A DNA stretch of 64,000 nt from an uncultured Chloroflexia bacterium (GTDB lineage: Bacteria > Chloroflexota > Limnocylindria > Limnocylindrales > CSP1-4), in contig CAVUJW010000013.1 of NCBI GenBank assembly GCA_963741915.1, positions 203,791 to 267,790 of the forward strand, given 5' to 3'. Below are positions 11,987-60,383 of the stretch, in pieces (the stretch's first letter is position 1; each line of letters begins with the position of its first letter). The notes beneath the pieces were generated by a model. The model did no database searches and had not been told where the DNA came from. It saw only the letters and a program-made list of their open reading frames with translations. Made by a program: the position numbers and the translations under genes.

Positions 11987-12003
11987 GCAAGGGAGTCAGC
12001 ATC

Positions 12004-39227: not shown

Positions 39228-39532
39228 GTGGGCTTCCGTCTCGTTGGCCCGGGCGACGGGCCGCTGCTGGCCAACCTCTTCGACCACCTCGACACCACGT
39301 CTTCGTCCGCACCCGTCGGGGCCGCCGGGCGCACGGCGGGTCGCCATCCGCAAGGGGCGCCACGACCTCATCCTGGTCGAGCGCAGGAGGGCCATCGCCA
39401 CGGCATGCTCCGAGGCTGGAGGAGGGCGAGTCGATCGGCCCTTGCTACGCGAGGAGGGAGCTGGGCGAGCTCGTGATGGAGGTGGAGCTGACGGACGACG
39501 CCGACGGCGCCGCGCAGGTGGCGCCCGGATGA
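39228..39532 (+). pseudogene. possible degraded small GNAT-type acetyltransferase remnant
   Basis: GNAT-like pieces are scattered over three frames: VGFRLVGPGDGPLLANLFDHLDTT, then LRPHPSGPPGARRVAIRKGRHDLILVERRRAIA, then HGMLRGW, then EEGESIGP...ELGELVMEVELTD...APG*. The last frame's stop overlaps the next ATG (ATGA). Interpretation is tentative. Confidence 0.25.
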
Positions 39533-42016: not shown

Positions 42017-42102
42017 CAAACCCCGGCTCCGCGGGCGCTGGGTTTCGAGATGGTCAAGTTCCAGCCGGTGCGCGAGGATGAGCGTGTCGTGAGGGATGAA
42101 CG

Positions 42103-42765: not shown

Positions 42766-42837
42766 TCCGGGGCGCTCCAGCGGGGACCTCGCGGATGGAC
42801 CTGACCGGGCGGCCGACGTCGGCGTTCTCGCGGAGGG

Positions 42838-43686: not shown

Positions 43687-43963
43687 CGCCCCGTTGGCGA
43701 CGCGATGCGGAAGATGCCACCTGTTGCCGGAGCCCGGTGGAACCCGGGTTTGCCCGGTGCGTGCCTATACTGGCGCGGCGTCCACCCCTGCGGGCGGACC
43801 AGCCCTCATTCGGCTCGTCGGAGGCGCTCGGGCATGTGGCCCAACCAACCCGCGTCCAGTCGTCGTTGGCGACGGTCCCGCGATCGGTTTCGAGTGCCTG
43901 CGTGGCGCCGGAGGTCATTCCAGGAGCGGCCGTCACGAGCGAGGGCCGAGTCGGGTTGCCGAG

Positions 43964-44848
43964 GTGCGTGAGGCGCCGGCAGCGACGCCCCGGCCGGCCG
44001 GGAATGGCAATGCATCGGTCTCGATCCCGGAGCTCGAGGAGCTCGCCCGCCAGGTCCGGGTCGAGGTCGTCCGCGCCGTGGCCAGGGCAGGAGGCGGCCA
44101 CCTGGGTGCCTCGCTGTCCGCCGCGGAGGTGCTGGTGGCGCTGTACTTCTCTGAGCTCGCCGTCCGTCCGGACGATCCATTGTGGGACGGTCGCGATCGG
44201 TTCGTCCTTTCGAAGGGACACGCGGCCCTGGCCCTGTACGCAACGCAGGCGCTGCGTGGCTACTTCCCGCTCGACGAGCTGGCCACGTTCGGCCGCATTG
44301 ACTCCCGGCTCCAGGGCCACCCGGACATGACTCGCCTACCGTCGGTGGACATGTCGTCGGGCGCGCTCGGGGTCGGCTTTTCGGCGGCGGTCGGGATCGC
44401 CCTGGGCAATCGTCTCCGGGGCAGCACGGCTCGCACCTGGACGATGCTCGGCGATGGCGAGTGCCAGGAGGGCGAGGTCTGGGAGGCCGCCTTCATCGCG
44501 GCTCGCTACGGGCTGGACAACCTGGTCGCGATCGTCGACCTCAACGGCTTCCAGGTCATCGGCTGGCCGGGAACCCGACCCGGAACGCGGCTGCCACCGT
44601 GGCCCGCCGGTCCGCTCGGGCGACAGTGGGCGGCCTCGGGCTGGCGCGTGATCACCATGGACGGTCACGACATGGCGGCCGTCGTGCAGACCCTGGAGGG
44701 TGCCCGTCGGCTGCGGGGCAAGCCCACCGTCATCATCTCCAAGACCCTGAAGGGACAAGGCGTCTCGTTCCTGCGTGGCGTCCACTCTCGCCCGCTCACC
44801 GACGCCGAGCTGGCCCTCGCCCTGGAGGAGCTCGGTGAAGCGGGCTGA
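43964..44848 (+). CDS. transketolase, N-terminal (ThDP-binding) subunit
   Basis: Lies in the frame of ORF 43499..44848: LARQVRVEVVRAVARAGGGHLGASLSAAEVLVALYF...DRFVLSKGHAALALYA...GHPD...SSGALGVGFSAAVGIAL...MLGDGECQEGEVWEAA. The start is uncertain (GTG 43964 chosen; there is no in-frame ATG). Confidence 0.8.
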   Translation: MREAPAATPRPAGNGNASVSIPELEELARQVRVEVVRAVARAGGGHLGASLSAAEVLVALYFSELAVRPDDPLWDGRDRFVLSKGHAALALYATQALRGYFPLDELATFGRIDSRLQGHPDMTRLPSVDMSSGALGVGFSAAVGIALGNRLRGSTARTWTMLGDGECQEGEVWEAAFIAARYGLDNLVAIVDLNGFQVIGWPGTRPGTRLPPWPAGPLGRQWAASGWRVITMDGHDMAAVVQTLEGARRLRGKPTVIISKTLKGQGVSFLRGVHSRPLTDAELALALEELGEAG

Positions 44849-45817
44849 GGCCGCCGATCGCGGTCCGGGCCTCACCCTGCGCGAGGCGTTCAACCGCACA
44901 CTGGTCGAATTGGCCCGCGATCACCCCGAGATCGTGATGCTCGACGCGGACAATGCGACCGCGACCGACCGAAGGGATCTTCGCCGAGGCGCACCCGTCG
45001 AAGTTCCTCCAGATGGGGGCTGCCGAGCAGAACATGGTCGGCGTGGCGGCCGGCCTTGCCGCCACAGGGTTCATCCCGTTCGTCTCATCGTACGCTTGCT
45101 TCCAGGTATTCCGGGCTCACGATCAGGTTCGCGTCCTGCTGGCGCAGACAGGGTTGCCCGTCCGGCTCGTCGGTCAGTCAGCCGGGATCCTCACCGGACT
45201 GACCGGCAAGACGCACCAGAGCATCGACGACGTTGCGGCAATGCGCGCGATGCCGGGCATGACCGTGGTCGTGCCAGGTGACGAACACGAGACGCGCGAG
45301 GTCCTGCGCTGGTCGCTCGGCCACCGTGGTCCTGTTTACATCCGGTTGGCGCGCGGAACCGCTCCGCTCATGTTCGACGATCAGTACCGGTTCGAGATCC
45401 CCGAGCGCGATCCTGGTCCGCGAGGGCGAGCAGCTCGCGATCATGAGCACCGGGCTGCAGACCTCAAGGGTGCTGGCTGCCCTGCCAGCCCTCGAAGCCG
45501 CCGGCATCCGACCATCGGTCCTGCACCTGCCGACGATCAAGCCGCTCGACGAGGAGGCGGTCGTTGAGGTCGCTGGCCTGGCCCGACGGGTCGTCACGGT
45601 CGAGGACCACGTGATCATCGGCGGGCTCGGCGGCGCCGTGTGCGAGGTGCTCGGCGCCCGATGCCCGGTGCCGGTCCTGCGGCTCGGCATCGACGACAGG
45701 TACGCCGAATCCGCCCCGCACGACGAGCTCGTCGAGCGCTACGGCATCTCCCCCGGTGTCGTAGCGCGAAAGATCATCGCGTGGGCATCGGGCGTGGCGG
45801 GCGACCGCGGTGCCTGA
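44835..45817 (+). pseudogene. transketolase, C-terminal (pyrimidine-binding) subunit with two apparent frameshifts (~44956-44972 and C4 run 45399-45402)
   Basis: There are three colinear pieces. The first is LTLREAFNRTLVELARDHPEIVMLDADNATAT. The second is EGIFAEAHPSKFLQMGAAEQNMVGVAAGLAATGFIPFVSSYACF...MTVVVPGDEHE...YIRLARG...YRFEI. The third is AILVREGEQLAIMSTG...LHLPTIKPLDEEAV...VTVEDHVIIGGLG. Confidence 0.8.
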
Positions 45818-46967
45818 GCCGGCCGATCGTGGGCCAGCGCAGCGCGTGGACGCGACCCGGCTTCATGCCTGGACGGCGGCGATCGCGCGCCGGGTGGGCA
45901 CGCCGGGCGACATTGCCACGGACGTGGCCGACGTGCTCATCGCCGCCGACCTGCGGGGCGTGGAGTCGCACGGCACGTTCCGGCTCCCCGTTTACGCTCG
46001 GCTTGCGGAGGCGTCCGTGATCATGACCGACGCCCGGCCCGTGGCCGACGGCGGGACGCCGGTGCTCCGTCGCTGGAACGCCGGCGACGGTTGGGGTCCG
46101 CACGCCGGACGGGTGCTCATGGATGACGCGATCGAACGGGCCCGGGAGCTCGGCATGGCGGGCTCGATCGCCTACCGCGCGAGCCATTTCGGGATCGCCG
46201 GCTGGTATGCGATGCGCGCCGCGGCGCAGGGCATGATCGGGCTGACCCTCACCAACGCATCGCCGCTGGTCGCCCCCACGCGGTCGCATCAGCGGCTGCT
46301 GGGCACCAACCCCATCGCCGTCGCCGCCCCAGCCGGCCGGTTCGGGATGTTCGTGCTCGACATGGCGACGTCGGCGATCACGTGGGGTCGGGTGCTCGTC
46401 GCCGACCGCCGCGGGCGGGAGCTTCCCGCCGGGGTGGCGATGGACGCCGATGGCGGTCCGTCGGTCCTTCCGGCCGATGTCCTCCGCTCCGGGGCTCTCC
46501 TGCCGCTCGGGGGAACTGAGGCAACGGCCGGCTACAAGGGCTACGGCCTCGCCATGATGGTCGACGTCCTGACCGGGGTCCTGGCGGGCGCCAACTTCGG
46601 ATCGGGTGTAATCCCGTTCTCGACGACCCGGGGCCCCTCCAACCTGGGCCAACTGTTCCTGGTCGTGAACCCGGCGGCGCTCGGCGACGATGGGTTCGTG
46701 GCGCGAATGGAGGCGCTGTGCGGCGAGCTCGTCGCTGCCCCTGCGCTGTCCGATGCGCCCGGCCCGGTGCTTATCCCCGGCCAGCCCGAGGCAGTGATGG
46801 AGGACGAGCAACGGCGGGACGGGATCCGGCTCGAGGCGGGACACCTTGAAGCGCTGGTTCAGCTCGGCGAGCGGCTCGGGGTCGCGTTTCCGCGCACAAC
46901 ACGATCGGATCGCTCCAGCTCGGCCGCCGCGGCGCCTTATCCGATCAGGGATGGGGCAACCCGATGA
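45810..46967 (+). CDS. Ldh_2 family (malate/L-lactate/sulfolactate/pyrroline-2-carboxylate type) NAD(P)H oxidoreductase
   Basis: 385 aa, ...VADVLIAADLRGVESHGTFRLPVYARL...SHFGIAGWYAMRAA...TNPIAVAAPAG...DMATSAITWGRV...GYKGYGLAMMVDVL. Confidence 0.8.
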   Translation: MPEPADRGPAQRVDATRLHAWTAAIARRVGTPGDIATDVADVLIAADLRGVESHGTFRLPVYARLAEASVIMTDARPVADGGTPVLRRWNAGDGWGPHAGRVLMDDAIERARELGMAGSIAYRASHFGIAGWYAMRAAAQGMIGLTLTNASPLVAPTRSHQRLLGTNPIAVAAPAGRFGMFVLDMATSAITWGRVLVADRRGRELPAGVAMDADGGPSVLPADVLRSGALLPLGGTEATAGYKGYGLAMMVDVLTGVLAGANFGSGVIPFSTTRGPSNLGQLFLVVNPAALGDDGFVARMEALCGELVAAPALSDAPGPVLIPGQPEAVMEDEQRRDGIRLEAGHLEALVQLGERLGVAFPRTTRSDRSSSAAAAPYPIRDGATR

Positions 46968-47215
46968 CCGCCATCGACGTCCTCGGCAAGACTTTCCGGG
47001 AGGCGCTCGGTCTGCCCTACGATGCCGCTCTCGACGGGGCTGCGTACGGCCGGACCGAGGGCTGGGACTCCGTGGGGCACCTGCAGCTGATGGTCGGGCT
47101 CGAGACCACGTTCCGGATCTCCGTGGCGGCGGACGACGTGTTCGAGATGAGCACCTTCGAGGCAGTCCGCCAGGTCCTCCGGGATCGCTACGCCATCGAT
47201 CTGCCGGACCGATGA
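46964..47215 (+). CDS. acyl/peptidyl carrier protein
   Basis: 83 aa; the ATG overlaps the upstream stop. The motif EGWDSVGHLQLM contains the phosphopantetheine-attachment Ser in a DS context. Size and helix pattern fit a carrier protein. Confidence 0.75.
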   Translation: MTAIDVLGKTFREALGLPYDAALDGAAYGRTEGWDSVGHLQLMVGLETTFRISVAADDVFEMSTFEAVRQVLRDRYAIDLPDR

Positions 47216-47301
47216 TCAAGGCCCTGACCACCTCGCACCCGAGTGGCTCCGACGTTACCGCGCCAGCAAGCGACTCAATCGCCCCCTGGCGCGGTGGCTG
47301 A
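47212..47301 (+). CDS. 29-aa coupled micro-ORF between the carrier protein and FemAB paralog 4
   Basis: The ATG overlaps the carrier-protein stop (ATGA): MIKALTTSHPSGSDVTAPASDSIAPWRGG*. GC3 is ~79%. The stop lies 3 nt before GTG 47305. Confidence 0.2.
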   Translation: MIKALTTSHPSGSDVTAPASDSIAPWRGG

Positions 47302-47304
47302 TCC

Positions 47305-48408
47305 GTGCTCGCAGCACTGCTCGAACCCGGCGATCCCCGCTGGATCGACGTCCTCGAGCGGATCCCGCACGACATGTACCACCTCCCCGGGTATGCCACG
47401 TTCGCGACGCGCTGGCACGAGTCAGGCGAGGCCATGGCGTTCGTCGCCAGCGAGCGGGATTCGGACTTCCTGGTCCCGCTGATCGTGCGCGCGGTCCCGC
47501 CCCGGATCGCAGATCGCTCGGGGTCGTTCGATGCCACCGGCCCACGCGGCTACCCGGGCCCCATCGTGCGTTCGGGTCCGGATGGACCGGACCTGCCATT
47601 CCTCGAGAGTGCCATCGAAGCGCTCGTTGGCGAGCTGCACCAACGGCAGATCGTGACGGCGTTCGTGCGCTGCCACCCGCTGCTCTCGCCGCCACTCGAC
47701 GTGCTGCGCACGTTCGGCGACGTAGTCGACCACGGCGAATCGGTGTCGATCGATCTCGCCCGCTCGGCGGAACAGGCCTGGGCCGACACCCGCGAGAACC
47801 ACCGGCGGGCGGTCAATCGGGCACGGCGCAGCGGGTATGCCGTACGGATCGACACGGCGTGGACGCGGCTCGATGAGTTCCTCGCGATCCATGCGGCCGC
47901 CATGGACCGGCTTGGCGCCGCGCCGAGCCAGCGCATTGTCCGCGGCCAGATCCTGGACCTCCGCTCGTCGACGGGGAGCGCGCTCCACCTGGCCCTCGTC
48001 GAGCATGCCGGCGATCTCGCCGCCGCAGCGCTCCTGAGCGAGGTCGACGGGATCGTCGAGTACCACCTCGCCGCCACGGCGCCCGACCACGTGGCGGCGA
48101 GCCCGACGAAGCTGCTGATCGCCGAGATCACCGGCTGGGCGCGCGATCGCGGCGATCGAGTGTTCCACCTGGCCGGGAGCCTGCGACACGACGACCCCCT
48201 CATCCATTTCAAGCGCGGCTTCTCGCCGCTGGTCCACCGAGTGGCATCCTGGCGGCTCGTGGCCGACCCGGACGCGTACGCACGACTGGTCGATCGCTGG
48301 GAGCGGCTCAGCGGCCGGCCCGCGGAAGCCGCCGATGGCGACGCGCCGTTCTTCCCGGCCTATCGCCGCGAGATCGGCAGGGTGAACGGGGAGGACGGCA
48401 CGCCCTGA
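47305..48408 (+). CDS. FemAB/BioF2-like acyltransferase, paralog 4
   Basis: 367 aa, MLAALLEPGDPRWIDVLERIPHDMYHLPGYATF...PRGYPGP...FVRCHPLL...HRRAVNRA...IVEYHLAAT...RVFHLAGSLR...HFKRGFS. Confidence 0.75.
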   Translation: MLAALLEPGDPRWIDVLERIPHDMYHLPGYATFATRWHESGEAMAFVASERDSDFLVPLIVRAVPPRIADRSGSFDATGPRGYPGPIVRSGPDGPDLPFLESAIEALVGELHQRQIVTAFVRCHPLLSPPLDVLRTFGDVVDHGESVSIDLARSAEQAWADTRENHRRAVNRARRSGYAVRIDTAWTRLDEFLAIHAAAMDRLGAAPSQRIVRGQILDLRSSTGSALHLALVEHAGDLAAAALLSEVDGIVEYHLAATAPDHVAASPTKLLIAEITGWARDRGDRVFHLAGSLRHDDPLIHFKRGFSPLVHRVASWRLVADPDAYARLVDRWERLSGRPAEAADGDAPFFPAYRREIGRVNGEDGTP

Positions 48409-48671
48409 CCGGCGCATCGATCGTCGTTGACCGCGCGGATTGGTGGTGCGCGGGCGCACAGGCCGAAGGGGACGGCGCCCCCTGCCACGTGGCCCGATGC
48501 CGGGTCGGTCCGGACGGGCGGAGATCGGTCCGGAGGGGTCGTCCCGGACGCGTTAAGGCATTGGGTCCCGTACCAAGGTTCCTCTAGGCCAGTGCATCGG
48601 GTCGCCAGTAGGCTCGGTGCGCGTCCCGGATACCCCCCAAGTTGGCTGACCGCGAGCATCATCCGGCCGGC

Positions 48672-48752
48672 CTCCTCGAAATAGCACACCCGTCGCGAGG
48701 CGGGGCCGCAAAGCCACGGGGCTCACCGAGCCAGCCGGGTTGCCGAAAGGAG
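48672..48752 (+). promoter_or_regulatory. GEMM-I-type cyclic-dinucleotide riboswitch, copy 2 (variant J1/2)
   Basis: AUAGCACACCCGUCGCGAGGCGGGGCCGCAAAGCCACGGGGCUCACCGAGCCAGCCGGGUUGCCGAAAGG. It shares the P2 CCCGUC-GNRA-GGCGGG, the GCAAAGCC core and the 3' GGGUUGCCGA with copy 1 and Vc2. The outer stem pairs CUCCU (48672-76) with AGGAG (48748-52), and AGGAG is the SD of the ATG at 48763. Confidence 0.68.
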
Positions 48753-48762
48753 CGCCCATCTC

Positions 48763-50598
48763 ATGTTCTGGGATGGCTCGCGTTGGATCGACGAGCGTGA
48801 ACACGCCGCCCAGTTGCAGTCCGCCAAGGCCCCGACCCACCATCCGCGTCGCTGGCTGACTGCCCTGGCCGTCATGGCCGGCCTGGCCATCCTGGTCATG
48901 CCGTCGCCCACTCCGGCGGCGGCCAGGTACGAGGCAGCCGCGCTGACCGCGGCGTGGGGCCCGGGCTACACGATGCGCCTGGCGCAGGAGTCCGACACGC
49001 GCGTCTCCGCCAACGGTGCCTGGCACCGCAGGGCGGCCCGCGGGTACCTCGGCGAGCGCGCGATCACGTCGTGGCAACGCGGGGCCCGGATCAGCTACAC
49101 GTTTTCGGGAACCGGGATCGCGATCATCGGTCCCACCAGCGCCCGGAGCGGCAAGGCCCGGATCTACGTGAACGGGAAGCTCGTCAAGACCGTCAACGCC
49201 CGGTCGGCGCGCTACCGGCGCCAGGTGCCCCTGTTCGTGACGAGCTGGACGACGGAGCAGACCCGGACGGTCACGATCGAGGTGGTCGGCACCACCCGCT
49301 CGGCCAAGTTCACGGTCGACGCGTTCGCCGTCAAGCGCGGCAAGCGCAAGGCTGCGCTGCTGCCGGCTCCGACGCCTGCGCCGACCTCGACGCCCGCGCC
49401 GACGCTCGCGGTCGATCCGCAGCCGACACCCCAGCCGACACCCCAGCCGACGCCGGACCCCGCCGTCGCGCCGGATCCGACCGCCGCGCCGACATCGATG
49501 CCGACGGCGACACCCGTGCCCACGGCCACCCCGTCGCCCACCGCGACGGTGACGCCCGCCCCAACGGCGACACCCGTGCCCACGGCCACCCCGACCCCCA
49601 CCCCGCGGCCGACGCCAACGCCGACGCCCCGACCCACGCCCACGCCGGTTTCGCTGACGGGCGAATTCCCCGTTCCCAGCAGCATTGACGCGACCGGCAG
49701 CACTGACGTGACCGCCGCACTTAACAACTGGATCGCCACCGTCCCTGACGGCTCGACGATCCTGTTCAAGGCGGGAGGGACGTATCGCCTCTCGCAGGGC
49801 ATCCAGATCGCGAATCGCCACGGCCTGACGTTTGCGGGCAACGGGGCGACCCTGCGCTCCACGGGGTCTGGCAGCGACCAGCTCGCCAGCCTGTTCGTGA
49901 TGGGGCACCAGTACGGCAGCTATTGGCGGTTCGGCAACACGGACATCACCGTCCGCGACTTCACGCTGCTCGGCAATGACCCGACTCCCGGCTCCTACGG
50001 TGGCGGCGAGAACCAGGCGGGCATGGAGATCGAGGGCGTGGCCGGGCTCGACGTAGCAAACGTGACCGTGCGCGCCGTCTACGGCGACGCGTTTAAGGTG
50101 GGCGTGGCATCGTCCGATGTGGTGATCCACGACTCGCACGTCGAGACGGCCGGGCGCAACGGGCTCACCGTCACGTCCGGGACCAACGTGCTCATGGAGC
50201 GGGTGAGTGTCACGCGCGCGGGCTACTGCGTGTTCGACATCGAGCCGAACCAGGCATCCGAGTCGGCGACCTCGATCACCATTCGGAACAACACGGCGGG
50301 CACCTGGGGCAACGCCTTCTTCGCCACCGAGGGGAGTCACACGGGCGCGACCATCAACGGGATCACGGTCACCGGGAACACGATCAGTGGCGCCTCGCTG
50401 CTGACGGTCGTCGACAACGGCGGCACGAGCCGGATGCGCAGCATCACGTTCAGCAACAACACGTCGACCGTGAAGGCCGCCGGACCCGTCCTGCGCTTTG
50501 CGCACATCGACGGCCTCACGGTCACCGGCAACGTCCAGCCGCTCTCGTCGGGACCCCTCGCGAGCATCACCGACAGCACCTCGGTCACCTATCCATAG
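48763..50598 (+). CDS. secreted/anchored right-handed beta-helix protein, paralog 1 (TM anchor, jelly-roll/CBM-like domain, Pro/Thr linker, pectate-lyase-fold domain)
   Basis: 611 aa. It has an N-terminal TM segment (WLTALAVMAGLAILVM), a ~140-aa beta-rich domain and a PT linker (aa 201-296). The beta-helix part begins VPSSIDATGSTDVTAALNNWIATVPDGSTILFKAGGTY with repeated xNVxVxxV/GxNG turns. Confidence 0.8.
   Translation: MFWDGSRWIDEREHAAQLQSAKAPTHHPRRWLTALAVMAGLAILVMPSPTPAAARYEAAALTAAWGPGYTMRLAQESDTRVSANGAWHRRAARGYLGERAITSWQRGARISYTFSGTGIAIIGPTSARSGKARIYVNGKLVKTVNARSARYRRQVPLFVTSWTTEQTRTVTIEVVGTTRSAKFTVDAFAVKRGKRKAALLPAPTPAPTSTPAPTLAVDPQPTPQPTPQPTPDPAVAPDPTAAPTSMPTATPVPTATPSPTATVTPAPTATPVPTATPTPTPRPTPTPTPRPTPTPVSLTGEFPVPSSIDATGSTDVTAALNNWIATVPDGSTILFKAGGTYRLSQGIQIANRHGLTFAGNGATLRSTGSGSDQLASLFVMGHQYGSYWRFGNTDITVRDFTLLGNDPTPGSYGGGENQAGMEIEGVAGLDVANVTVRAVYGDAFKVGVASSDVVIHDSHVETAGRNGLTVTSGTNVLMERVSVTRAGYCVFDIEPNQASESATSITIRNNTAGTWGNAFFATEGSHTGATINGITVTGNTISGASLLTVVDNGGTSRMRSITFSNNTSTVKAAGPVLRFAHIDGLTVTGNVQPLSSGPLASITDSTSVTYP
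49363..49650 (+). repeat. Pro/Thr-rich linker-coding low-complexity repeat
   Basis: It encodes PAPTPAPTSTPAPT...PQPTPQPTPQPTP...TATPVPTATP...PRPTPTPTPRPTPTP. It contains a perfect 30-bp direct repeat, acggcgacacccgtgcccacggccaccccg, at 49504-49533 and 49564-49593. Confidence 0.7.
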
Positions 50599-50745
50599 TG
50601 GCGGGCGAGGTCGCCGGCGCGACTTGCACCCCGTTGGCATACTGACTGGTGCCCCCCGTCACCGGGTGCTCGCCTGCCATCCAGCCGCGGCGCAAGCCTG
50701 CGTGAACCACGCCCATCGCCACAGACGAGGCCTTGACGATAGCCT

Positions 50746-52527
50746 GTGATCTCTGAAGCCCGCGCCCTGCCGTGCCCTTCGCGATCCTGGCGGCTCGTCC
50801 CCCTGGTCGCCCTGGCGGTGCTCGTCGCCTTGCTGGCGACATCGTCGTTCGCGCCTCCGGTGGCCGCAGCCTCGGGCTCCAAGGTGGCCATCATCGTGGG
50901 CCCATCCGGCTCCCGGACGGCGGCGAACCGGGATCAGGGCCTTGCCGCCGCCGCCGAGGCGGCCCGCCACACGTCGAACGTGGTCACGGTGTTCAGCCCC
51001 AACGCGACGTGGACACGCGTGAAGCGGGCGATCACGGGCGCCTCGCTGGTCGTGTACATCGGTCGGGGACGCGGCTACCCCTCGCGCTACAGCTCGTCGC
51101 TGCGGACCACGGACGAGGACGGGTTCGGGCTGAACCCGGTCGCCGGGGTGAACAACCGTCGGACGAGGTTCTACGGGGAGCGCTACATCCGCAGCACGGC
51201 GCTGGCACCGAACGCCCTCGTGGTCCTGTCGCGGGCCGCCTATGCCTCGGGCTCCGGCGACCCGGGCATGGCCCAGCCCACCCTGCGGGTCGCTCGCCGG
51301 CGAGTCGACAACTACGGGGCAGGCTTCCTCGCCGCCGGCGCCTCCGTCGTGATCGCGGATTCCTCGGCGGCCCCCAGGTACTACGTCCGAGCGCTGTTCG
51401 GCGCGACGCGGACGCTCGACGCGGTGTGGCGGTCCGCGCCGTCACGCCATGGTCACGTCACCTCCTTCTCCTCGACCCGGACGCCCGGCGCGACCGGCCG
51501 TACCGACCCGGTCCACCCCCATGCCGGGTTCACGCGATCGATCGTCGGGTGGCTGTCCACGACGACCTCGATGATCCTTTCACGCGGCGTGGTCTCGTTG
51601 CCGCCCGGGAGCGGTCCGGTGGTCGCGGTCCCGTCGTCGATCGACGCGACCGGCTCGGCCGATGCGAGCGCGGCCCTCAACGCGTTCATCGGCACGGTGC
51701 CCGACGGGGCCACGATCGTGTTCAAGGCCGGGGGCGTCTACCGGATGGCCGGGGCGCTCAAGTTCGCCCATCGCCGCAACCTCACGTTCGAGGGCAACGG
51801 GTCGACCCTCAAGGGAGCCGGCGGAACCACCGAGTCCGGCTCCCTGATCTGGCTCGGCTCCTACGGCGGTGCCAACGCGGGGATCGCGATCCGCAACTTC
51901 CGGCTCACGGGCAACAGCTCCACGCCGGGCACCTACCAGGCCGGCCGCGAGGGCGCCCACGGCATCATGCTCGACGGGGGCAACGGGATCGAGATCACGA
52001 ACGTGACGATCAGCGCCGTGTGGGGCGACTGCCTCAAGCTCACCACCTGGGCGGACGGGGTCTCGTTCCATGACTCGACCTGTGCCTCCAGCGGGCGCAA
52101 CGGCATCACGATCCTGGCCGCGAGGAACGTCGCCGTGCAGCGAGTCGGATTCACCAGGACGGGCTACTGCACGTTCGACATCGAGCCGATGAGCTCCAGC
52201 CAGGGCGCAAGCAACATCCGCTTCCTGGACAACACCGCCGGCACCTGGAGCAACTCGTTCCTGTCGGCGGACGGCGCGGCCGGCTCGGTCGTCAACGGCC
52301 TGACGGTGAGCGGCAACACCGTTACCGGCAAGTCGCTGCTCACGGTCATCGACCTCGCCCGCCGCCAGAACGTCGTGTTCACCAACAACACCTCGATGGT
52401 CAAGGCCCCGGGCCCGGTCCTGCGCTTCGCGCACATCGACGGCCTGACGGTCACCGGCAACGTCCAGCCGCTCTCGTCGGGACCCCTCGCGAGCATCACC
52501 GACAGCACCTCGGTCACCTATCCCTGA
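50746..52527 (+). CDS. secreted right-handed beta-helix protein, paralog 2 (signal peptide, ~270-aa unknown N-domain, beta-helix)
   Basis: 593 aa with signal-like WRLVPLVALAVLVALLATSSFAPPVAAASG. The beta-helix part (VPSSIDATGSADASAALNAFIGTVPDGATIVFKAGGVY...) is homologous to paralogs 1 and 3. The last ~110 codons are identical to paralog 3. Confidence 0.8.
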   Translation: MISEARALPCPSRSWRLVPLVALAVLVALLATSSFAPPVAAASGSKVAIIVGPSGSRTAANRDQGLAAAAEAARHTSNVVTVFSPNATWTRVKRAITGASLVVYIGRGRGYPSRYSSSLRTTDEDGFGLNPVAGVNNRRTRFYGERYIRSTALAPNALVVLSRAAYASGSGDPGMAQPTLRVARRRVDNYGAGFLAAGASVVIADSSAAPRYYVRALFGATRTLDAVWRSAPSRHGHVTSFSSTRTPGATGRTDPVHPHAGFTRSIVGWLSTTTSMILSRGVVSLPPGSGPVVAVPSSIDATGSADASAALNAFIGTVPDGATIVFKAGGVYRMAGALKFAHRRNLTFEGNGSTLKGAGGTTESGSLIWLGSYGGANAGIAIRNFRLTGNSSTPGTYQAGREGAHGIMLDGGNGIEITNVTISAVWGDCLKLTTWADGVSFHDSTCASSGRNGITILAARNVAVQRVGFTRTGYCTFDIEPMSSSQGASNIRFLDNTAGTWSNSFLSADGAAGSVVNGLTVSGNTVTGKSLLTVIDLARRQNVVFTNNTSMVKAPGPVLRFAHIDGLTVTGNVQPLSSGPLASITDSTSVTYP

Positions 52528-52582
52528 GGCCGGACCACCGGTGCCGGGCACCCCGGGCCGGCGGCCGCCCCGCGGGACGGGC
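52198..52582 (+). repeat. 385-bp near-identical duplicate, copy A (3' end of paralog 2 plus 55 nt past the stop)
   Basis: Identical to 53498..53882 apart from two substitutions (52215 C/T, 52574 G/T), at a constant offset of 1300 nt. Confidence 0.9.
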
Positions 52583-52708
52583 AGAATGGCCGCGGCGGCG
52601 GGCTCGCGTCTCGGCTGATCTCGCTCGGATCGGCGGCGGTGTCCCAGCTGGCTTTCGCGGCGTGCAGATGGGCGTTCCGGCCCGGTCTATTGGAGGAGGT
52701 GGGCCGAT

Positions 52709-53827
52709 TTGTCCGGGCCGGGTGACGAGCCGGAGGTGATGCGCAGGCCGACGCGCCGCCACGACGCGGCGCTCGTGGCCGTCGGTGCCGCCGTCATGCT
52801 GGGCGCGGTCCTCGTGGCCGGCCGCGTGCTCGATGTCGGCTCCGGCCAGCCGCCGGTGACATCCCCGTCGGGCCCCGTGGCGACCCCGTCCCGCGTCCCG
52901 GTCACCGACGGCATCGCCGTCCCGAGCTCGATCGATGCCACGGGAGCCCGCGATGCATCCGCGGACCTGGCTTCCTGGCTGGCGACCGTGCCCGACGAAT
53001 CCACGATCCTGTTCAAGCCGGGTGGCCTCTACCGGCTCGACCACGGCCTGGAGCTCAAGGATCGGCGCGGCCTAACGTTCGAGGGCAACGGATCGACATT
53101 CCAGGGGAGCGGCGGCGCCACCTGCGGGCGCGAATGCTCGCTGTTCTACCTGAACGGCGGGAACCACGGCATCATCATCCGCGGCTTCACCCTCGCGGGG
53201 AACAGCCCGACGCCGGGGGTCTTCGACCCGGACCGAGAGCACCAGGCGGCCGTCGCCATCGTCGGCGGCAGCCAGGTCGAGATTGCGGACGTCACGATCA
53301 GCGGCGTCGGCGGGGATGGCCTGACGCTGAGCGGGGACGCGCCCGATTGGGCATCCGACGTCTGGTTCCACGACGCCCGCGTCGCGTCCAGCGGGCGCAA
53401 CGGCATCGCGGTCGTGGCCGGGCGCGACGTCATCGTGGAGCGGGTCGCCATCGACGCCAGCGGATACAGCACGTTCGACGTCGAGCCCAACACGAGCAGC
53501 CAGGGCGCAAGCAATATCCGCTTCCTGGACAACACCGCCGGCACCTGGAGCAACTCGTTCCTGTCGGCGGACGGCGCGGCCGGCTCGGTCGTCAACGGCC
53601 TGACGGTGAGCGGCAACACCGTTACCGGCAAGTCGCTGCTCACGGTCATCGACCTCGCCCGCCGCCAGAACGTCGTGTTCACCAACAACACCTCGATGGT
53701 CAAGGCCCCGGGCCCGGTCCTGCGCTTCGCGCACATCGACGGCCTGACGGTCACCGGCAACGTCCAGCCGCTCTCGTCGGGACCCCTCGCGAGCATCACC
53801 GACAGCACCTCGGTCACCTATCCCTGA
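52709..53827 (+). CDS. membrane-anchored right-handed beta-helix protein, paralog 3 (TM anchor directly followed by the beta-helix)
   Basis: 372 aa. The TTG at 52709 has GGAGGAGG 8 nt upstream. TM segment: AALVAVGAAVMLGAVLVAG. Then VPSSIDATGARDASADLASWLATVPDESTILFKPGGLY... Confidence 0.8.
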   Translation: MSGPGDEPEVMRRPTRRHDAALVAVGAAVMLGAVLVAGRVLDVGSGQPPVTSPSGPVATPSRVPVTDGIAVPSSIDATGARDASADLASWLATVPDESTILFKPGGLYRLDHGLELKDRRGLTFEGNGSTFQGSGGATCGRECSLFYLNGGNHGIIIRGFTLAGNSPTPGVFDPDREHQAAVAIVGGSQVEIADVTISGVGGDGLTLSGDAPDWASDVWFHDARVASSGRNGIAVVAGRDVIVERVAIDASGYSTFDVEPNTSSQGASNIRFLDNTAGTWSNSFLSADGAAGSVVNGLTVSGNTVTGKSLLTVIDLARRQNVVFTNNTSMVKAPGPVLRFAHIDGLTVTGNVQPLSSGPLASITDSTSVTYP

Positions 53828-53977: not shown

Positions 53978-55210
53978 TTGATGACGGACCAGACGATCAC
54001 GAATCTAGACGAGGCGCCCAGCGACCGCTCGGTCCCGGTCGTCTCGGTCCTGATGATCACGACGGTCTGGACCACCCTGCGGTTCGTCGTCCCGTATGCG
54101 GAGCATCTCCGCTCGCGCGGCTGGCGGGTCGATGCCGCGGGGAACGGGGCTACCGGGGACCCGATCCTGGCTGCCGCGTTCGACGGCGTCCACGAGCTGC
54201 CCCTGTCGCGTTCGCTGCGCGACGTGGCGAGCCTGCGGCGAGGCCAGCGCGTCCTGCACGAGCTGCTCGAGACGGGTCCCGACATCGTCCACGTCCACAC
54301 CCCCATCGCCGGCTTCCTGACCCGGCTCGCCATCCGGCAGATGCCGGCACGGCTCCGGCCGGCGGTCGCCTACACTGCCCACGGCTTCCACTTCCACCAG
54401 GGCGGCCACCCCATCGCCAACGCCGCGTACCTGCTGGCGGAGCGCATCGCCGGGCGCTGGACCGACCGCCTGATCGTGATCAACGAGGAGGACGAGGCCG
54501 CCGCGCTGCGGTACCGGATCGTGCCCCGGCGCCGGCTGGTCCACATGCCCGGGATCGGCGTGGACACGGCCCGGTACGCGCCGGCGACGGTCGCCCCCGA
54601 CGCGCCGTCGCACCTCCGCGATCAGCTGGGGATCCCCGCCGGAGCGCCGGTGTTCGTGGTCGTCGGGGAGCTCAGCCGGCGGAAGCGGCAGCGGGATGCC
54701 GTCGCGGCGTTGCGGGCGATGCGCCACCAGGATGCTCATCTCGTGCTGGCCGGGGCGGGGCCGACCCGGGCGATGCTGGAGGCCCAGGCCCGCGACCTCG
54801 GCCTCGCCCATCGCGTCCACCTCCTGGGCAACGTCGCCGACATCCGGCCCGTCGTCCGGACCGCCACCGCGCTCATCCTGCCCAGCGAGCGGGAGGGCCT
54901 GGCGAGGTGCCTGATGGAGGCACTCTCGCTCGAGGTCCCCGTGATCGCGTCGACGGCGAGGGGTAACGACGAGGTGATCGGGCCCGACTGCGGGATCCTG
55001 TTCACGACCGGTGACGTCGACGCGCTGGCGGCGGCCATGGATCACTTCGTCGATCATCCCGACGAGGCGGTCGCCACGGGGATCCGGGGCCGGCAGCGGA
55101 TGATCGACCGCTTCGACGTGCCGATCCTCCGGCGGCACCATGACGCCCTCTACGCGGAGCTTCTCGCCGAGCGGGCCGAGCGGCTGGATCGGGCGCAGCG
55201 AACGGGCTGA
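53978..55210 (+). CDS. GT-B fold glycosyltransferase (GT4 family-like)
   Basis: 410 aa. Sequence: ...VVSVLMITTVWTTLRFVVPYAEHLRSRGWRV...HVHTPIAGF...LILPSEREGLARCLMEALSLEVPVIAS. This is the E(x7)E-type C-terminal motif. Confidence 0.85.
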   Translation: MMTDQTITNLDEAPSDRSVPVVSVLMITTVWTTLRFVVPYAEHLRSRGWRVDAAGNGATGDPILAAAFDGVHELPLSRSLRDVASLRRGQRVLHELLETGPDIVHVHTPIAGFLTRLAIRQMPARLRPAVAYTAHGFHFHQGGHPIANAAYLLAERIAGRWTDRLIVINEEDEAAALRYRIVPRRRLVHMPGIGVDTARYAPATVAPDAPSHLRDQLGIPAGAPVFVVVGELSRRKRQRDAVAALRAMRHQDAHLVLAGAGPTRAMLEAQARDLGLAHRVHLLGNVADIRPVVRTATALILPSEREGLARCLMEALSLEVPVIASTARGNDEVIGPDCGILFTTGDVDALAAAMDHFVDHPDEAVATGIRGRQRMIDRFDVPILRRHHDALYAELLAERAERLDRAQRTG

Positions 55211-55248
55211 GCGGGCCCTGCGCGGCCGGCCCTAGCCCTGGCCCGGCC

Positions 55249-56412
55249 CTATCCGGCCGGTCCCACGTGCTCGCGGGCTCGCCGCTCGGCGGCCAGGTCG
55301 TCCAGGAGCGCGGCCGTCTGGACGGCACGCACATCCCATGAGTACCGCTCGACGGCGGCCTGACGGCCGCGCGTGCCCATCGCGGCCGCTTCCGCCGGGT
55401 CGGCGACCAGCTGCGCCACGGCACGGGCGAGCGCGTCGGCGTCTCCCGCCGGAAACGTCAGCCCACAGGCGTGCTCCCGCACGATGTCGCCCAGGCCCGG
55501 CAGGGCCGAGGCCACGACGGGAACCCCCGAGGCCATGCCCTCGAACAGCTTGAGGGGCGACAGGCCGAACTGCGAGCGGGGCACGTCGGTCATCGGCACG
55601 AGGGCCGCGAGGCTGCCGGCAACCAGCGACGGGATCTGGTCGTAGGGGACCGTCCCCAGCCACCGGATGTCGGGCCGCCGACGCACCGCCGCCTCGACGA
55701 CCCCGCGCTCGTTGCCGTCGCCGGCGATGATCAGCTCGACCCCACCGGGCCACGACGCCGAGCCGACCGCCTCGACGATCGTGTCGACACCCTGCCACGG
55801 TGCGAGCGCCCCGACGAACACCACGTATCGATCGGGCGAGGCGGGGTCCTCGCCGCGGCGCCCCGGCGCCCGGGTGGTGGTGGTGGCCCGCGGGGTGAAC
55901 CGATCGACATCGGCGCCGTTGCCGATGACGCGATAGCCGTCGAGCCGCCCGGAGTGCTCCTGCATGTATCCGACCAGGCCCGGGGTCACGACCACGATGG
56001 CATCGGCGGTGCGGACCTGGATCCGCGACACCAGCGACAGCAGCCCTCGCGCGAACCGCAGCAGCGGCCACGCGTCGTAGGTGTCCGAGGCCGGCCCGTT
56101 GATCTCCTGGACCACGATCGACCCTGCCATGCGGGCCACGATCGCGATCGGCAGGGCCAGGAAGTGCGCCCTGATGTAGACGAACCCGGCGGGCCGGAAC
56201 CGGCAGCTCACGAGATAGGCAAGCTGGCTACTGGCCGCGACCAGCGCCCGCCGCAAGCCGTCGGCCCGACCGGGTCGCGGGTGCGCGGGCTCGACCAGCC
56301 TCACCTCCCAACCGTGGCGCCGCAACCCGGCCACGATCTCGTTGACGTGCGCGTAGCTGGCCTGGCCCTGGCGGGTCGGCTGCATGCAGATGTAGTCGAC
56401 GGTCCTGCGCAT
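55249..56412 (-). CDS. GT-B fold glycosyltransferase (GT4 family-like)
   Basis: 387 aa from ATG 56412 (the ORF is open to 56832): MRRTVDYICMQPTRQGQASYAHVNEIVAGLRRHGWEV...FGLSPLKLFEGMASGVPVVAS. Confidence 0.85.
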   Translation of the reverse strand: MRRTVDYICMQPTRQGQASYAHVNEIVAGLRRHGWEVRLVEPAHPRPGRADGLRRALVAASSQLAYLVSCRFRPAGFVYIRAHFLALPIAIVARMAGSIVVQEINGPASDTYDAWPLLRFARGLLSLVSRIQVRTADAIVVVTPGLVGYMQEHSGRLDGYRVIGNGADVDRFTPRATTTTRAPGRRGEDPASPDRYVVFVGALAPWQGVDTIVEAVGSASWPGGVELIIAGDGNERGVVEAAVRRRPDIRWLGTVPYDQIPSLVAGSLAALVPMTDVPRSQFGLSPLKLFEGMASGVPVVASALPGLGDIVREHACGLTFPAGDADALARAVAQLVADPAEAAAMGTRGRQAAVERYSWDVRAVQTAALLDDLAAERRAREHVGPAG

Positions 56413-57878
56413 CAGCGGTCGCCCCGTGCCCCGCCGCCTCGCGGTCCGCCGGCGGGTCCCGGCCGGCGCTTCGCCCGAGGGACGGCGACCGCCGCGCGCG
56501 CGCCCCGCCGCCATCCGGGCGGGCCGACGGATGCCGGCGGGCGACGCACGGCCCGGTCCGCGACGGACGACTGGAGCGCCGCGCCGAGCAGCGCCCAGTA
56601 CAGGAAGATGATCGGGTAGTCGAGGGGCGTCTGGGTGAGGCCGGCGACCGCGATCAGGATCGTGATCGGGACGAGCGCATCGCCGAACCTCGCTTTGAGC
56701 AGGGCGAACGGGGCGACCAGGAGCAGGATCAGGGCGCCGACGAGCGGTACCGAGCCCTGCGCGAAGGCCCGGAACCACGTGCTGTCCACCGCGGTCCCCA
56801 GCAGCAGCTCGGGTGAGCCCCAGGTCCCCCACGGGTAGACGGCGTTCAGGTCGATCACGGACCGCCAGTAGTCGAGCCGGCCGGCGAGGTTCGCATCGGC
56901 CTGGGGTCCTTGGGTCCAGACCGCGATCAGGGCGCTGAACCGGTCCACCAGGCCCTGCGAAGGCTCAACCGCGACGACCACGGTGATCGCCACCAGCGCG
57001 GCCACGCCGACGGAGATCGCCGTCCGGGCCGCTCCCGGCGCGCTCGTTCGGCCACGCAGGAACGCCAGAACCACGCCCACGCACGCCGCCGCGACGAGGG
57101 CGACCGAGGCTCCTCGCGACTGGCTGAGGCCCAAGGTCAGCACGGCCAGCAGCACGCCCGCCACCCGGAGGCGGGTCGTCAGGATCGTCCAGGCGAGGAT
57201 CGTGGCCACGCCGGCCCACAGGCCGAGCTCGTTGGGATTGAAGTAGAGGCCGGTTGGCCGGGCCTGGACGAAGCTGCCGTACAGCGCCTGCAGCGACAGG
57301 TCCCACGCATGGAACGGGGCGAACAGCTCCCACGCCGGCCCACGGCCGAGGTACGCGATCTGCCCCAGCGCGTAGGCGAGCTGCAGCCCGATCGCCATGG
57401 CCAGCCACGGCCGCCAGCGCCGCATCGGTGCGGCGGACGCTGCCGCTCCGAGGACCATGAACGACAGGGCCGACGTCGACCCGGTGATCGAGATCAGGGT
57501 CCGGTACGGATACCGGTTGAACATGACCCCCAGCACCGGCAGGACCAGCTCGAGCACGAGGTAGGGGGCCACGGCGATGATGAACACCGGGCTCCGCAGG
57601 AAGCGAAGCGTCGATCCGGTGCCGTAGCGGATGACTGCTACCGCGGCCGCCGCAGGCGCCCCGAAGCTCAACAGCTCCAACGCGCCCCGGCCTCCGGTCG
57701 AGACCCCCACCACGAGCCGATCGCCGAGAAGCGCGCAGAGCACGACGAACCCGATGATCAGGGCCATGCCGAGGTCGGCCTCATGGGCGGCCTCGCTCGC
57801 GATGGCGGCCTCGCTCCCGGTCGCCGTCCGGGCGCCCGGGCGCGGCCACGTCCCGCGACGAGCGACCCCCCCGCTCAC
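56412..57878 (-). CDS. O-antigen ligase/polymerase family (Wzy_C) membrane protein
   Basis: 488 aa with ~10-12 TM segments. The loop ...TGLYFNPNELGLWAGV...LGLSQSRGASVAL is typical of the Wzy_C domain. The GTG at 57878 overlaps the upstream stop (GTGA); an alternative start is at 57767. Confidence 0.8.
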   Translation of the reverse strand: MSGGVARRGTWPRPGARTATGSEAAIASEAAHEADLGMALIIGFVVLCALLGDRLVVGVSTGGRGALELLSFGAPAAAAVAVIRYGTGSTLRFLRSPVFIIAVAPYLVLELVLPVLGVMFNRYPYRTLISITGSTSALSFMVLGAAASAAPMRRWRPWLAMAIGLQLAYALGQIAYLGRGPAWELFAPFHAWDLSLQALYGSFVQARPTGLYFNPNELGLWAGVATILAWTILTTRLRVAGVLLAVLTLGLSQSRGASVALVAAACVGVVLAFLRGRTSAPGAARTAISVGVAALVAITVVVAVEPSQGLVDRFSALIAVWTQGPQADANLAGRLDYWRSVIDLNAVYPWGTWGSPELLLGTAVDSTWFRAFAQGSVPLVGALILLLVAPFALLKARFGDALVPITILIAVAGLTQTPLDYPIIFLYWALLGAALQSSVADRAVRRPPASVGPPGWRRGARAAVAVPRAKRRPGPAGGPRGGGARGDR

Positions 57879-58822
57879 GCGCGGCCCCCGATGAGGGCCG
57901 CCAGGCGCGCTACGAGCCGATCCGGGTCGTAGGCTTCGAGCGCGTAGGCCCGGCCCTCGAGGTTCAGTTCGAGCGACCCGGCCCGGTGGGCGTCGTGGAG
58001 CGCGGCCAGCTCCGCGACGAGCCCGTCAGCGGTCACGGGCTCGAGCGTCCGGACGAACGGGAGCCGGTAGGAGTAGATGACCTGGCGTCCATGGAGCAGG
58101 GCCTCGACCACGGTGTGCCCGAGGCCGTCATGACGCGGGATGCGGACGACCGCCGCGGCGCGCGCGTACAGGTCGTTCATGCCCGCCACCCAGCCATGCC
58201 ACGTGACGTTGGGCTGGACGGGACGCTCGGCTGGCCCGGGCGGGCCGACTACGTCGAACGTTATGTCGGGAAGCCGCCGCGCGGCCTCGAGCACGACCTC
58301 GCCGCCATAGAAGGCGAACCGGTCGCCGGGCAGGTAGGTCAGCACCCGGAAGGTCTCCGGCATGGGCGACGGCACGGCGGGCGCCTCGTAGGGCTGCGGC
58401 ACGTGGACCACCTCGGCGTTGTACCCGAGCTCCTGGAGCTCGACGGCGAGCCACGGTGCGGTCGTGATGTGGAGATCGGCGCGGGCCATGTCGACGGCAC
58501 GTCGGCGGAGCGTCCCCGCGCGGGACTCGGCTAGCGTGTCCATCACATCCGTGCCCAGCCAGTAGTGGCAGCCGCGCGCGTGCGGCATCCGCCGTCGCAG
58601 CATTGACCAGTACGCGTCGAACAGCCGACCGCGGAGCGTCGTCGCCCCGACGCGATACCCGGCCCGGACGAGGACGAGGTCGCGTGCTCGCGGCGGGCGA
58701 GCCAGCACCTGGGGGTATGCCCCCTGGTGGATGAACCGCGCCTCGATGTCGCTCCGGCCGTCGAGCGCGCTGGCAATCCTCGACCCCCAGTACGGCTGCC
58801 CGAGCACGAGGACCTCAATCAT
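57875..58822 (-). CDS. putative glycosyltransferase (GT-B-like C-terminal half)
   Basis: 315 aa. Sequence ...VRIPRHDGLGHTVVEALLHGRQVIYS... resembles the nucleotide-sugar-binding half of GT4 enzymes. The N-terminal half is not recognisable. Confidence 0.6.
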   Translation of the reverse strand: MIEVLVLGQPYWGSRIASALDGRSDIEARFIHQGAYPQVLARPPRARDLVLVRAGYRVGATTLRGRLFDAYWSMLRRRMPHARGCHYWLGTDVMDTLAESRAGTLRRRAVDMARADLHITTAPWLAVELQELGYNAEVVHVPQPYEAPAVPSPMPETFRVLTYLPGDRFAFYGGEVVLEAARRLPDITFDVVGPPGPAERPVQPNVTWHGWVAGMNDLYARAAAVVRIPRHDGLGHTVVEALLHGRQVIYSYRLPFVRTLEPVTADGLVAELAALHDAHRAGSLELNLEGRAYALEAYDPDRLVARLAALIGGRA

Positions 58823-60368: not shown

Positions 60369-60383
60369 ACCGCTGGGCGGGGG

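Follow-up and report, generated by a model that had tools for sequence, protein, structure and literature searches.

A GEMM-I-clan cyclic-dinucleotide aptamer is predicted to sequester the Shine-Dalgarno sequence of a putative membrane-anchored β-helix glycanase gene in a Chloroflexia polysaccharide locus

The aptamer and the three genes behind it

The subject of this analysis is a candidate cyclic-dinucleotide riboswitch and the genes that follow it in a 64,000-nt stretch of DNA from an uncultured Chloroflexia bacterium (contig CAVUJW010000013.1 of assembly GCA_963741915.1, positions 203,791 to 267,790 of the forward strand), which we refer to as the window. The aptamer belongs to the GEMM-I clan, lies directly in front of the first of three consecutive plus-strand genes for β-helix proteins, and is surrounded, together with these genes, by a Wzx/Wzy-type polysaccharide locus, as judged from the Pfam families of the flanking open reading frames (ORFs). 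An earlier note on this DNA had read the element as an OFF switch at high cyclic di-GMP (c-di-GMP). As detailed below, the aptamer and the stem that covers the ribosome-binding site hold up well, and a translational OFF switch fits them; the ligand assignment is less secure. The analysis establishes what the aptamer is, its A20 base, the conserved placing of the Shine-Dalgarno sequence in P1, the protein folds, and the association of the aptamer with a gene family; the ligand, the OFF polarity, the enzymatic activity, and any effect on the whole operon are inferred. The riboswitch class and the type of expression platform are both known, and the host lineage and the coherent gene family are new. 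The features needed for what follows are these (positions are those of the window):

48669-48678, + strand: 5' strand of the extended helix P1 in the RNAfold minimum free energy (MFE) structure, with the anti-Shine-Dalgarno (anti-SD) segment CUCC at 48672-48675 and the P1 core CG at 48677-48678
48675-48748, + strand: GEMM-I-clan cyclic-dinucleotide aptamer, with P2 capped by a GCGA (GNRA) tetraloop and P3 carrying a conserved A bulge and an AG internal loop
48683, + strand: A, equivalent of Vc2 G20; last base of the joining segment J1/2 (AAAUA), directly 5' of the G48684-C48709 pair that closes P2
48710, + strand: A, equivalent of the intercalating adenine A47 of Vc2; a cmscan mismatch at RF03167 model position 37, where the RF01051 consensus has A
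48743, + strand: C, conserved, equivalent of Vc2 C92; cmscan model position 75
48744-48756, + strand: 3' strand of the extended P1, with the SD sequence GGAG at 48749-48752, an AA bulge (48746-48748) and a 10-nt spacer to the ATG
48763-50598, + strand: gene 1, 611 aa, Pfam PF12708 and PF13229; MFWDGSRW cytoplasmic tail, transmembrane (TM) helix at aa 32-48, β-sandwich resembling carbohydrate-binding module (CBM) families 6 and 35 at aa 69-193, Pro/Thr linker at aa 196-300 (34% P, 27% T) and right-handed β-helix at aa 304-611
50746-52527, + strand: gene 2, 593 aa; Sec-type signal peptide at aa 17-33 followed by AAAS, an N-domain of ~250 aa and a β-helix at aa 295-593
52709-53827, + strand: gene 3, 372 aa; N-terminal TM anchor at aa 20-36, then a β-helix

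A scan of the whole window against Rfam returns two GEMM-I-clan aptamers, at 48675-48748 (+) and 11888-11965, and at each site a second, lower-scoring member of the clan also passes its gathering score and is suppressed by clan competition. The aptamer in front of gene 1 is a full-length match (model 1-80) to RF03167 with 59.6 bits and an E-value of 1.6e-11 for the whole window, or 9.9e-14 when scanned locally, which bears out the placing of a GEMM-I-type aptamer before gene 1. The earlier note had named RF01051 as the model with which to find it; RF03167 is the top model at the site, and the near-identical aptamers in five related loci (L003, L004, L005, L009, and L130) score 55-61 bits against RF01051, for which the gathering score is 35 (59 for RF03167). 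The end-to-end cmscan alignment and RNAfold agree on a three-way junction composed of P1, the GNRA-capped P2, and P3 with its bulge and internal loop. The MFE structure of 48664-48765 reproduces all helices of the GEMM-I fold, with P1 prolonged to 48669-48678/48744-48756 so that it covers GGAG.

RF03167 represents the "GGC" variant of this clan, which we take, from a comparison of the two Rfam consensus lines, to mean a G at the A47-equivalent position (ACGC-G-AAgCc in RF03167 and ACGC-A-AAgCc in RF01051, model position 37). The P2 and P3 sequences of the window RNA are very similar to that model; however, the threshold is passed by just 0.6 bit, and the diagnostic G is A48710 here and an A in the 11888 aptamer and all aligned relatives as well, and therefore we do not regard this RNA as a GGC variant. 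Most likely the high score reflects lineage similarity of the seed sequences rather than variant identity, and caution is in order when annotating, since the RF03167 label is being given to sequences that lack the diagnostic base. With the canonical Vc2 aptamer of RF01051, the window RNA shares the three-helix junction, the GNRA-capped P2, the P3 bulge and receptor, and the equivalents of A47 and C92, but differs in having an A for G20, a J1/2 of 5 rather than 6 nt, and a P1 of ~10 pairs that includes the SD.

The outer stem pairs with the Shine-Dalgarno sequence

The segments CUCCU (48672-48676) and AGGAG (48748-48752) and the ATG at 48763 lie exactly where the earlier note had put them, and the CUCC-GGAG pairing it proposed is present in the MFE structure. 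Column-wise pair counts from a MAFFT alignment left four sequences, in which J1/2 is 6 nt, out of register in P1, and these counts were replaced by a scripted recount in structural register over 17 relatives. On this basis, the two P1 core pairs form in 17/17 relatives, and the three that join UCC of the anti-SD to GGA of the SD form in 16/17, 17/17, and 15/17; in P2 and P3, 98-100% of cells are paired. The pair beside the bulge covaries (U-A in 2 relatives, A-U in 8), and an SD in the form GGAG, GGGA, or GGUG stands at the same place in all 17, with one locus (L008) replacing CUCC/GGAG by CACC/GGUG. The conserved pyrimidine tract lies outside the aptamer and has no purpose other than pairing with the SD. 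The aptamer ends 14 nt before the ATG of gene 1, and no intrinsic terminator is found on the plus strand between 48300 and 54100; control is therefore expected at translation initiation.

The aptamer travels with an N-terminal module

To place the aptamer in the context of its relatives, we combined three sets of loci. Searching genomes with gene 1 gave nine loci, each in one of the metagenome-assembled genomes (MAGs) of uncultured Chloroflexia, and a GEMM-I aptamer is found 10-15 nt before the start codon of the homolog in 9/9. A metagenome scan for the pattern of the aptamer core added 120 loci, 12 of which precede genes that begin with M(x)FW(D/N)GxxW, the others preceding unrelated genes. 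Finally, all four homologs chosen by protein similarity alone carry the aptamer at the same place and lie in exopolysaccharide (EPS) clusters, and two of these four have a glycoside hydrolase catalytic domain of family GH16 or GH26 instead of the β-helix. The GH16 and GH26 homologs thus keep the aptamer, which links the RNA to the N-terminal module and not to the β-helix as such. The conserved module consists of the MFWDGxRW tail, the TM helix, and the CBM6/35-like sandwich. Genes with the M(x)FW(D/N)GxxW start are found in L001-L009, L020, L032, L061-L063, L069, L070, L076, L081, L095, L100, L115, and L130-L133.

Several features of these genes deserve mention in their own right. The M(x)FW(D/N)GxxW start (48763-48792 in the window) is near-invariant in every riboswitch-linked gene, is encoded by varying codons, and is followed by a basic tail and the TM helix; it is like half of the actinobacterial DUF2510 motif, but Pfam gives no match. 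The start codon of gene 1 can be enclosed by a 7-bp hairpin (CAUCUCAUGUUCUGGGAUG, 48756-48783), which also occurs in L001, L002, and L063 and not in L005 or L006. We considered this hairpin as an RNA element and rejected it: it is not conserved in L005 and L006, and the codons vary, so the N-terminus is a peptide motif. The fusions of the aptamer and N-terminal module to GH16 or GH26 span 3001-4536 in L130 and 3001-4692 in L131, and in L131 a second GH26 gene lies directly downstream. In three of the gene 1 homologs (L006, L007, and L009), the ORF breaks after 50-112 codons and the similarity goes on in a different frame, as would be expected of pseudogenes or, likewise plausible, of frameshift errors in MAGs assembled from long reads.

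Gene 1 encodes a putative glycan-active β-helix enzyme

The match of gene 1 to PF12708 (Pect-lyase_RHGA_epim) is just above the cut-off (28.6 versus 27 bits). AlphaFold2 models the β-helix with a pLDDT (predicted local distance difference test) of 95.7 and a pTM (predicted template modeling score) of 0.92, and the N-terminal module with a pLDDT of 83. A Foldseek search with the β-helix gives 89 PDB matches at E ≤ 1e-3, all of them β-helix carbohydrate-active enzymes, tailspikes, or adhesins, led by RbmB, the lyase of Vibrio polysaccharide (VPS) from Vibrio cholerae (E-value 6e-7, TM-score 0.56), with GH110 enzymes, GH28 polygalacturonases, AlgE4, and tailspikes among the further neighbors. This is the fold expected by the earlier note. 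The N-terminal sandwich resembles CBM6, CBM35, CBM36, and the N-domain of carbohydrate esterase family 2 (CE2). A CBM-like module joined to a catalytic domain by a Pro/Thr linker is a classic architecture of secreted glycanases. Taken together, the models provide good support for gene 1 encoding a membrane-anchored, CBM-bearing β-helix enzyme active on glycans.

Sequence conservation within the family highlights an acidic cluster (E416, D442, D457, D492, and E494), R465, and an Asn ladder (N510, N539, N566, and N590). Conservation stays below 75% for every Lys of the family, and K227, the proposed Lys base of RbmB, has no conserved equivalent. Like gene 1, RbmB is a right-handed β-helix enzyme encoded within an EPS/matrix cluster (vps/rbm); unlike it, RbmB shares just 12-13% identity with gene 1, whose family has the acidic cluster and lacks the conserved Lys. 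We know of no riboswitch control of RbmB. The proposal that such proteins are matrix-remodeling lyases, hydrolases, or epimerases is therefore sustained as far as the glycan-active fold and modules are concerned, and the conserved residues do not separate the three activities.

An alternative is that the β-helix proteins are biosynthetic or modifying enzymes, for example akin to C5-epimerases, or adhesins, in which case a logic of switching dispersal off would fail. The genes do lie inside a biosynthetic locus, the Foldseek matches also include the AlgE4 and AlgE6 epimerases, an alginate epimerase/lyase, and the adhesin PfbA, and the β-helix proteins have no sequence match among solved structures in the PDB and none in NCBIfam. 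We nevertheless consider this unlikely, if the strongest of the alternatives discussed here, given that in homologs this riboswitch and N-terminal module come with hydrolase domains of GH16 and GH26, that a matrix lyase heads the structural matches, that an acidic cluster is conserved, and that the CBM-like module with its Pro/Thr linker is typical of secreted glycanases. Being wired at the RNA level to a cyclic-dinucleotide signal, within the EPS loci that encode them, marks these proteins as candidate matrix-trimming or dispersal enzymes, and so offers a functional handle on uncharacterized secreted β-helix, GH16, and GH26 proteins of uncultured soil Chloroflexia.

The ligand pocket carries an adenine at position 20

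In the Vc2 aptamer, C92 forms a Watson-Crick pair with G-beta of the ligand, and G20 reads the Hoogsteen face of G-alpha (PMC6140456, PMC5888326). The corresponding pocket of the window RNA is A48683/A48710/C48743, or "AAC" in place of the canonical "GAC"; A47 and C92 are retained and the G20 of RF01051 is replaced. The unpaired G of RF01051 (the first G of GGC) aligns with the A48683 equivalent in L009 and L005, and those relatives that have a G differ from their A counterparts at that base only (AAAUA/AAAUG, AACUA/AACUG, and ACAAGA/ACAAGG), so that the positional homology of A48683 is unambiguous. By analogy with characterized RNAs, an A at position 20 within a GEMM-I fold, as found here, is the signature of the GEMM-Ib riboswitches, which respond to cyclic AMP-GMP (3'3'-cGAMP) or are bispecific. 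This base makes it unsafe to take c-di-GMP as the ligand, as the earlier note had done.

Precedents bear directly on this point. Wild-type Vc2 binds c-di-GMP in the pM range and cGAMP at 10 uM, whereas its G20A variant binds c-di-GMP at 53 nM and cGAMP at 120 nM, and Cbe 1-2 of Clostridium beijerinckii, a natural A20 aptamer, is bispecific (PMC6140456). In Geobacter, riboswitches reach a ~1200-fold selectivity for cGAMP (PMC6456294, PMC6140456), and A20G turns Gmet_0970 from cGAMP-selective to c-di-GMP-selective (PMC6456294). The pocket sequence suggests that the ligand of the window RNA is c-di-GMP, 3'3'-cGAMP, or both, and by analogy with Vc2 G20A and the natural A20 aptamers, we expect it to bind either one.

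The relatives form a natural mutant series at this position. Of the 26 aptamers linked to genes with the FWDG-type start, 14 have A as the pocket base, 11 have G, and one has C; the remaining 112 GEMM-I matches from that scan include four with A and one with C. Within the syntenic group defined by the riboswitch, gene 1, and gene 2, the window shares its A with L001, L002, and L005, L003 has C, and L006 has G. Among the relatives at large, A and G alternate on three J1/2 backgrounds. Such alternation suggests relaxed constraint or affinity tuning, and this polymorphism in near-identical aptamers before orthologous genes could serve to tell affinity tuning from a ligand switch. Two aptamers have a C at the G20 position, that of the syntenic ortholog L003 (at ~5920) and that of L034; these may be functional variants or sequencing or assembly errors.

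On balance, we lean toward c-di-GMP as the in vivo signal, acting through a bispecific, affinity-tuned pocket in which A20 would tune the affinity downward, as would suit a translational switch that works at equilibrium. In favor of c-di-GMP are the G20 aptamers of orthologs, the alternation of the pocket base, the canonical GGDEF-EAL gene of the window, the canonical Asp in all 11 GGDEF domains of the ~0.8 Mb examined, and a regulatory logic shared with the zmpI riboswitch described below. Three observations weigh against this assignment and speak for a cGAMP-selective, GEMM-Ib-type riboswitch, whose A20 clade would constitute a 3'3'-cGAMP regulon of Chloroflexota surface glycanases apart from a G20 c-di-GMP regulon. 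First, A20 is an experimentally established determinant of cGAMP recognition, as the Geobacter selectivity and its reversal by A20G show. Second, A20 is enriched in the FWDG-linked regulon relative to the other GEMM-I matches (14/26 versus 4/112). Third, the window holds a canonical G20 aptamer at 11888, 37 kb from the A20 aptamer, an arrangement resembling the two-signal organization in Geobacter, where polysaccharide genes also lie downstream of GEMM-Ib elements (PMC6456294).

The comparison with the Geobacter elements (Gs1761 and Gmet_0970) and Cbe 1-2 cuts both ways. All share the GEMM-I fold with an A at the G20 position, and the Geobacter RNAs also resemble ours in having G20 aptamers in the same genome region and in their link to cell-surface and polysaccharide genes. 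The Geobacter elements, however, are transcriptional ON switches with terminators in a deltaproteobacterial host, whereas the window RNA is a putative translational OFF switch in Chloroflexia, with A, G, or C at the pocket position depending on the ortholog. Furthermore, all 11 GGDEF domains found in the ~0.8 Mb examined, that of the window included, have the canonical Asp (GHxxGD). Synthesis of 3'3'-cGAMP would call for a DncV/CD-NTase enzyme or for a Hypr-GGDEF, in which Ser or Thr replaces this Asp; no Hypr-GGDEF was seen among the 11, and no cGAMP synthase is in evidence. Since syntenic orthologs in sister MAGs carry G20 (L006) or C20 (L003), since A and G swap on three J1/2 backgrounds, and since A20 alone confers bispecificity in Vc2 and Cbe 1-2 (PMC6140456), cGAMP selectivity seems doubtful to us. 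In the same vein, we regard as speculative and improbable the broader proposal that the A20 aptamers before FWDGxRW-TM-CBM glycanases define a 3'3'-cGAMP-responsive or dual-input regulon in Chloroflexota; if true, the phylum would have a cGAMP pathway that has yet to be described, and the A/G/C alternation would record repeated natural rewiring of matrix-remodeling genes between two second messengers.

A canonical, strictly c-di-GMP-specific GEMM-I riboswitch, as first envisaged, would agree with the GEMM-I fold, the intact A47 and C92, the canonical GGDEF-EAL(-GAF) gene in the window (GHAAGD...GGDEF), and the G20 aptamers before orthologs, but is quite unlikely even if c-di-GMP is the physiological ligand, because the discrimination against cGAMP seen in Vc2 (10 uM versus pM) depends on G20 (PMC6140456), which is replaced here.

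A probable translational OFF switch on gene 1

Ligands of GEMM-I aptamers stack on P1 and stabilize it; with the SD held in P1, binding should therefore lock the SD away, from which we infer an OFF polarity. In the mechanism envisaged, ligand bound at the three-helix junction would stabilize P1, which here runs ~8 further pairs outward with the SD GGAG (48749-48752) as its 3' strand. The bound state would hide the ribosome-binding site of the ATG at 48763 and repress translation of gene 1, such that no matrix-cutting or matrix-trimming enzyme would be made while the matrix-building signal is high. Judged from sequence and predicted structure, a translational OFF switch on gene 1 is probably the best reading. 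The SD-in-P1 geometry and the missing terminator thus accord with the OFF switch of the earlier note, with the exception of c-di-GMP as its sole ligand.

A number of results weigh against this reading. Formal covariation is weak, the aptamer core (P2 and P3) being almost invariant in the clade. A permutation test on the mean duplex energies of native and swapped P1 strands over 22 relatives (-10.5 versus -9.8 kcal/mol, p = 0.079) is not significant, because the shared CUCC/GGAG core dominates. Moreover, folding predictions that include no ligand already show the extended P1, and freeing the SD costs 5.0, 3.2, and 0 kcal/mol in three flank contexts, so that no clean two-state switch is modeled. 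The outcome of such apo-state calculations varies with the length of flank folded, and we did not use them as evidence.

The same aptamer could instead have another output, the P1/SD helix being constitutive and the ligand acting on mRNA stability or Rho-dependent termination, or relieving repression as in an ON switch, perhaps with the anti-SD strand pairing instead with CGAGG in P2. GEMM-I riboswitches can be ON or OFF depending on context (PMC6366702), P1 including the SD is the MFE structure in the absence of ligand, and in some contexts (compare L003 and L063) either the 3' half of P2 (GAGGCGGGG) takes up the anti-SD strand or the SD is freed by refolding of the entire leader. We give this alternative little credence: the ligand stabilizes the very helix that holds the SD, no terminator is present in the plus-strand interval given above, and the pairing with P2 is possible only in the subgroup with CUCCUCG and not in that with UCCACG, for which reason we rejected it as a general mechanism.

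The translational OFF switch has a counterpart in Clostridioides difficile, in which a class I OFF riboswitch lies upstream of zmpI, encoding PPEP-1 (PMC6366702). In both cases, a cyclic-dinucleotide OFF switch controls an extracellular enzyme that frees or dismantles surface or matrix components (putatively so for gene 1); they differ in that zmpI encodes a protease and is regulated by transcription termination, whereas gene 1 encodes a putative glycanase with control at the ribosome-binding site.

Genes 2 and 3 and the tandem array

Genes 2 and 3 match PF13229 (Beta_helix) with 27.4 and 40.9 bits, respectively, against a cut-off of 25.9. All three products thus match Beta_helix or Pect-lyase_RHGA_epim, and each has an N-terminal hydrophobic segment with a Kyte-Doolittle KD(17) value of 2.1-2.6, confirming three same-strand β-helix paralogs with export signals. 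Over ~305 aa, the products of genes 1 and 2 are 54% identical (E-value 1e-106) and those of genes 2 and 3 are 69% identical (2e-139). The ~250-aa N-domain of gene 2 has no Pfam match and is 53-63% conserved in genes downstream of the gene 1 homologs of L001, L002, L003, L005, and L006.

The 3' ends of the three genes have been homogenized. A 147-nt repeat is 93-100% identical among them (50448-50594, 52377-52523, and 53677-53823), the three paralogs do not differ in their last 40 aa, nor genes 2 and 3 in their last ~120 aa, and between these two genes a further repeat is found (52048-52347/53348-53647; repeat families D1-D4). This pattern indicates that the array has recently undergone gene conversion or unequal recombination.

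The arrangement of genes 1, 2, and 3 behind a single head aptamer recurs in L001 and L005. No aptamer, not even a degenerate one, is detected before gene 2 or gene 3 at E ≤ 10, and both genes have their own start regions. The riboswitch would therefore be expected to reach paralogs 2 and 3 only if they are co-transcribed with gene 1 and subject to polarity; the description of the aptamer as heading a tandem array holds for its position and need not mean control of all three genes.

The surrounding polysaccharide locus

Pfam places the glycosyltransferase (GT), Wzx, Wzy, and Wzz-kinase genes that the earlier note had described as flanking the array in a downstream half of the locus, which runs from 53978 to 62003 on mixed strands; the upstream half runs from 36284 to 48408.

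53978-55210, + strand: GT4 glycosyltransferase
55249-56832, - strand: GT4 glycosyltransferase
56412-57878, - strand: Wzy_C
57875-58822, - strand: glycosyltransferase
58815-60368, - strand: Polysacc_synt_3/Wzx
60384-62003, - strand: Wzz, GNVR, and P-loop kinase domains (Wzz/BY-kinase)
36284-48408: Bac_transf, DegT aminotransferase, two FemAB-like GNAT proteins, and an AMP-binding enzyme, with further genes for a PglD-like hexapeptide acetyltransferase, a TylF methyltransferase, a split transketolase, Ldh_2, and an acyl carrier protein (ACP)

The Bac_transf domain is that of an initiating sugar transferase. Here it forms part of a single 533-aa ORF (36284-37885, - strand) in which a proline dehydrogenase domain (aa 56-292) precedes Bac_transf (aa 347-458), and which may be an odd fusion or an artefact of ORF calling. 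The FemAB-like GNATs, AMP-binding enzyme, ACP, split transketolase, Ldh_2, and TylF encoded at 38950-48408 suggest an unusually decorated sugar repeat with aminoacyl or acyl modifications.

The second aptamer of the window

The aptamer at 11888-11965 scores 63.1 bits as GEMM-I, and its pocket is the canonical G20/A47/C92. Upstream of it lie a GAF-GGDEF-EAL gene and one for a DUF5317 protein (context 8469-11746); downstream, within the region 11888-12091, is a 28-codon ORF that encodes MKANLARFTWAVALLASMALTTGAWMRW. Metagenome loci with the same aptamer subtype and the same micro-protein (MKANLARFT...LGAG.[RK]W) number at least 11, and a GGDEF gene is close by in several; the ORF looks like a conserved, riboswitch-controlled single-TM micro-protein.

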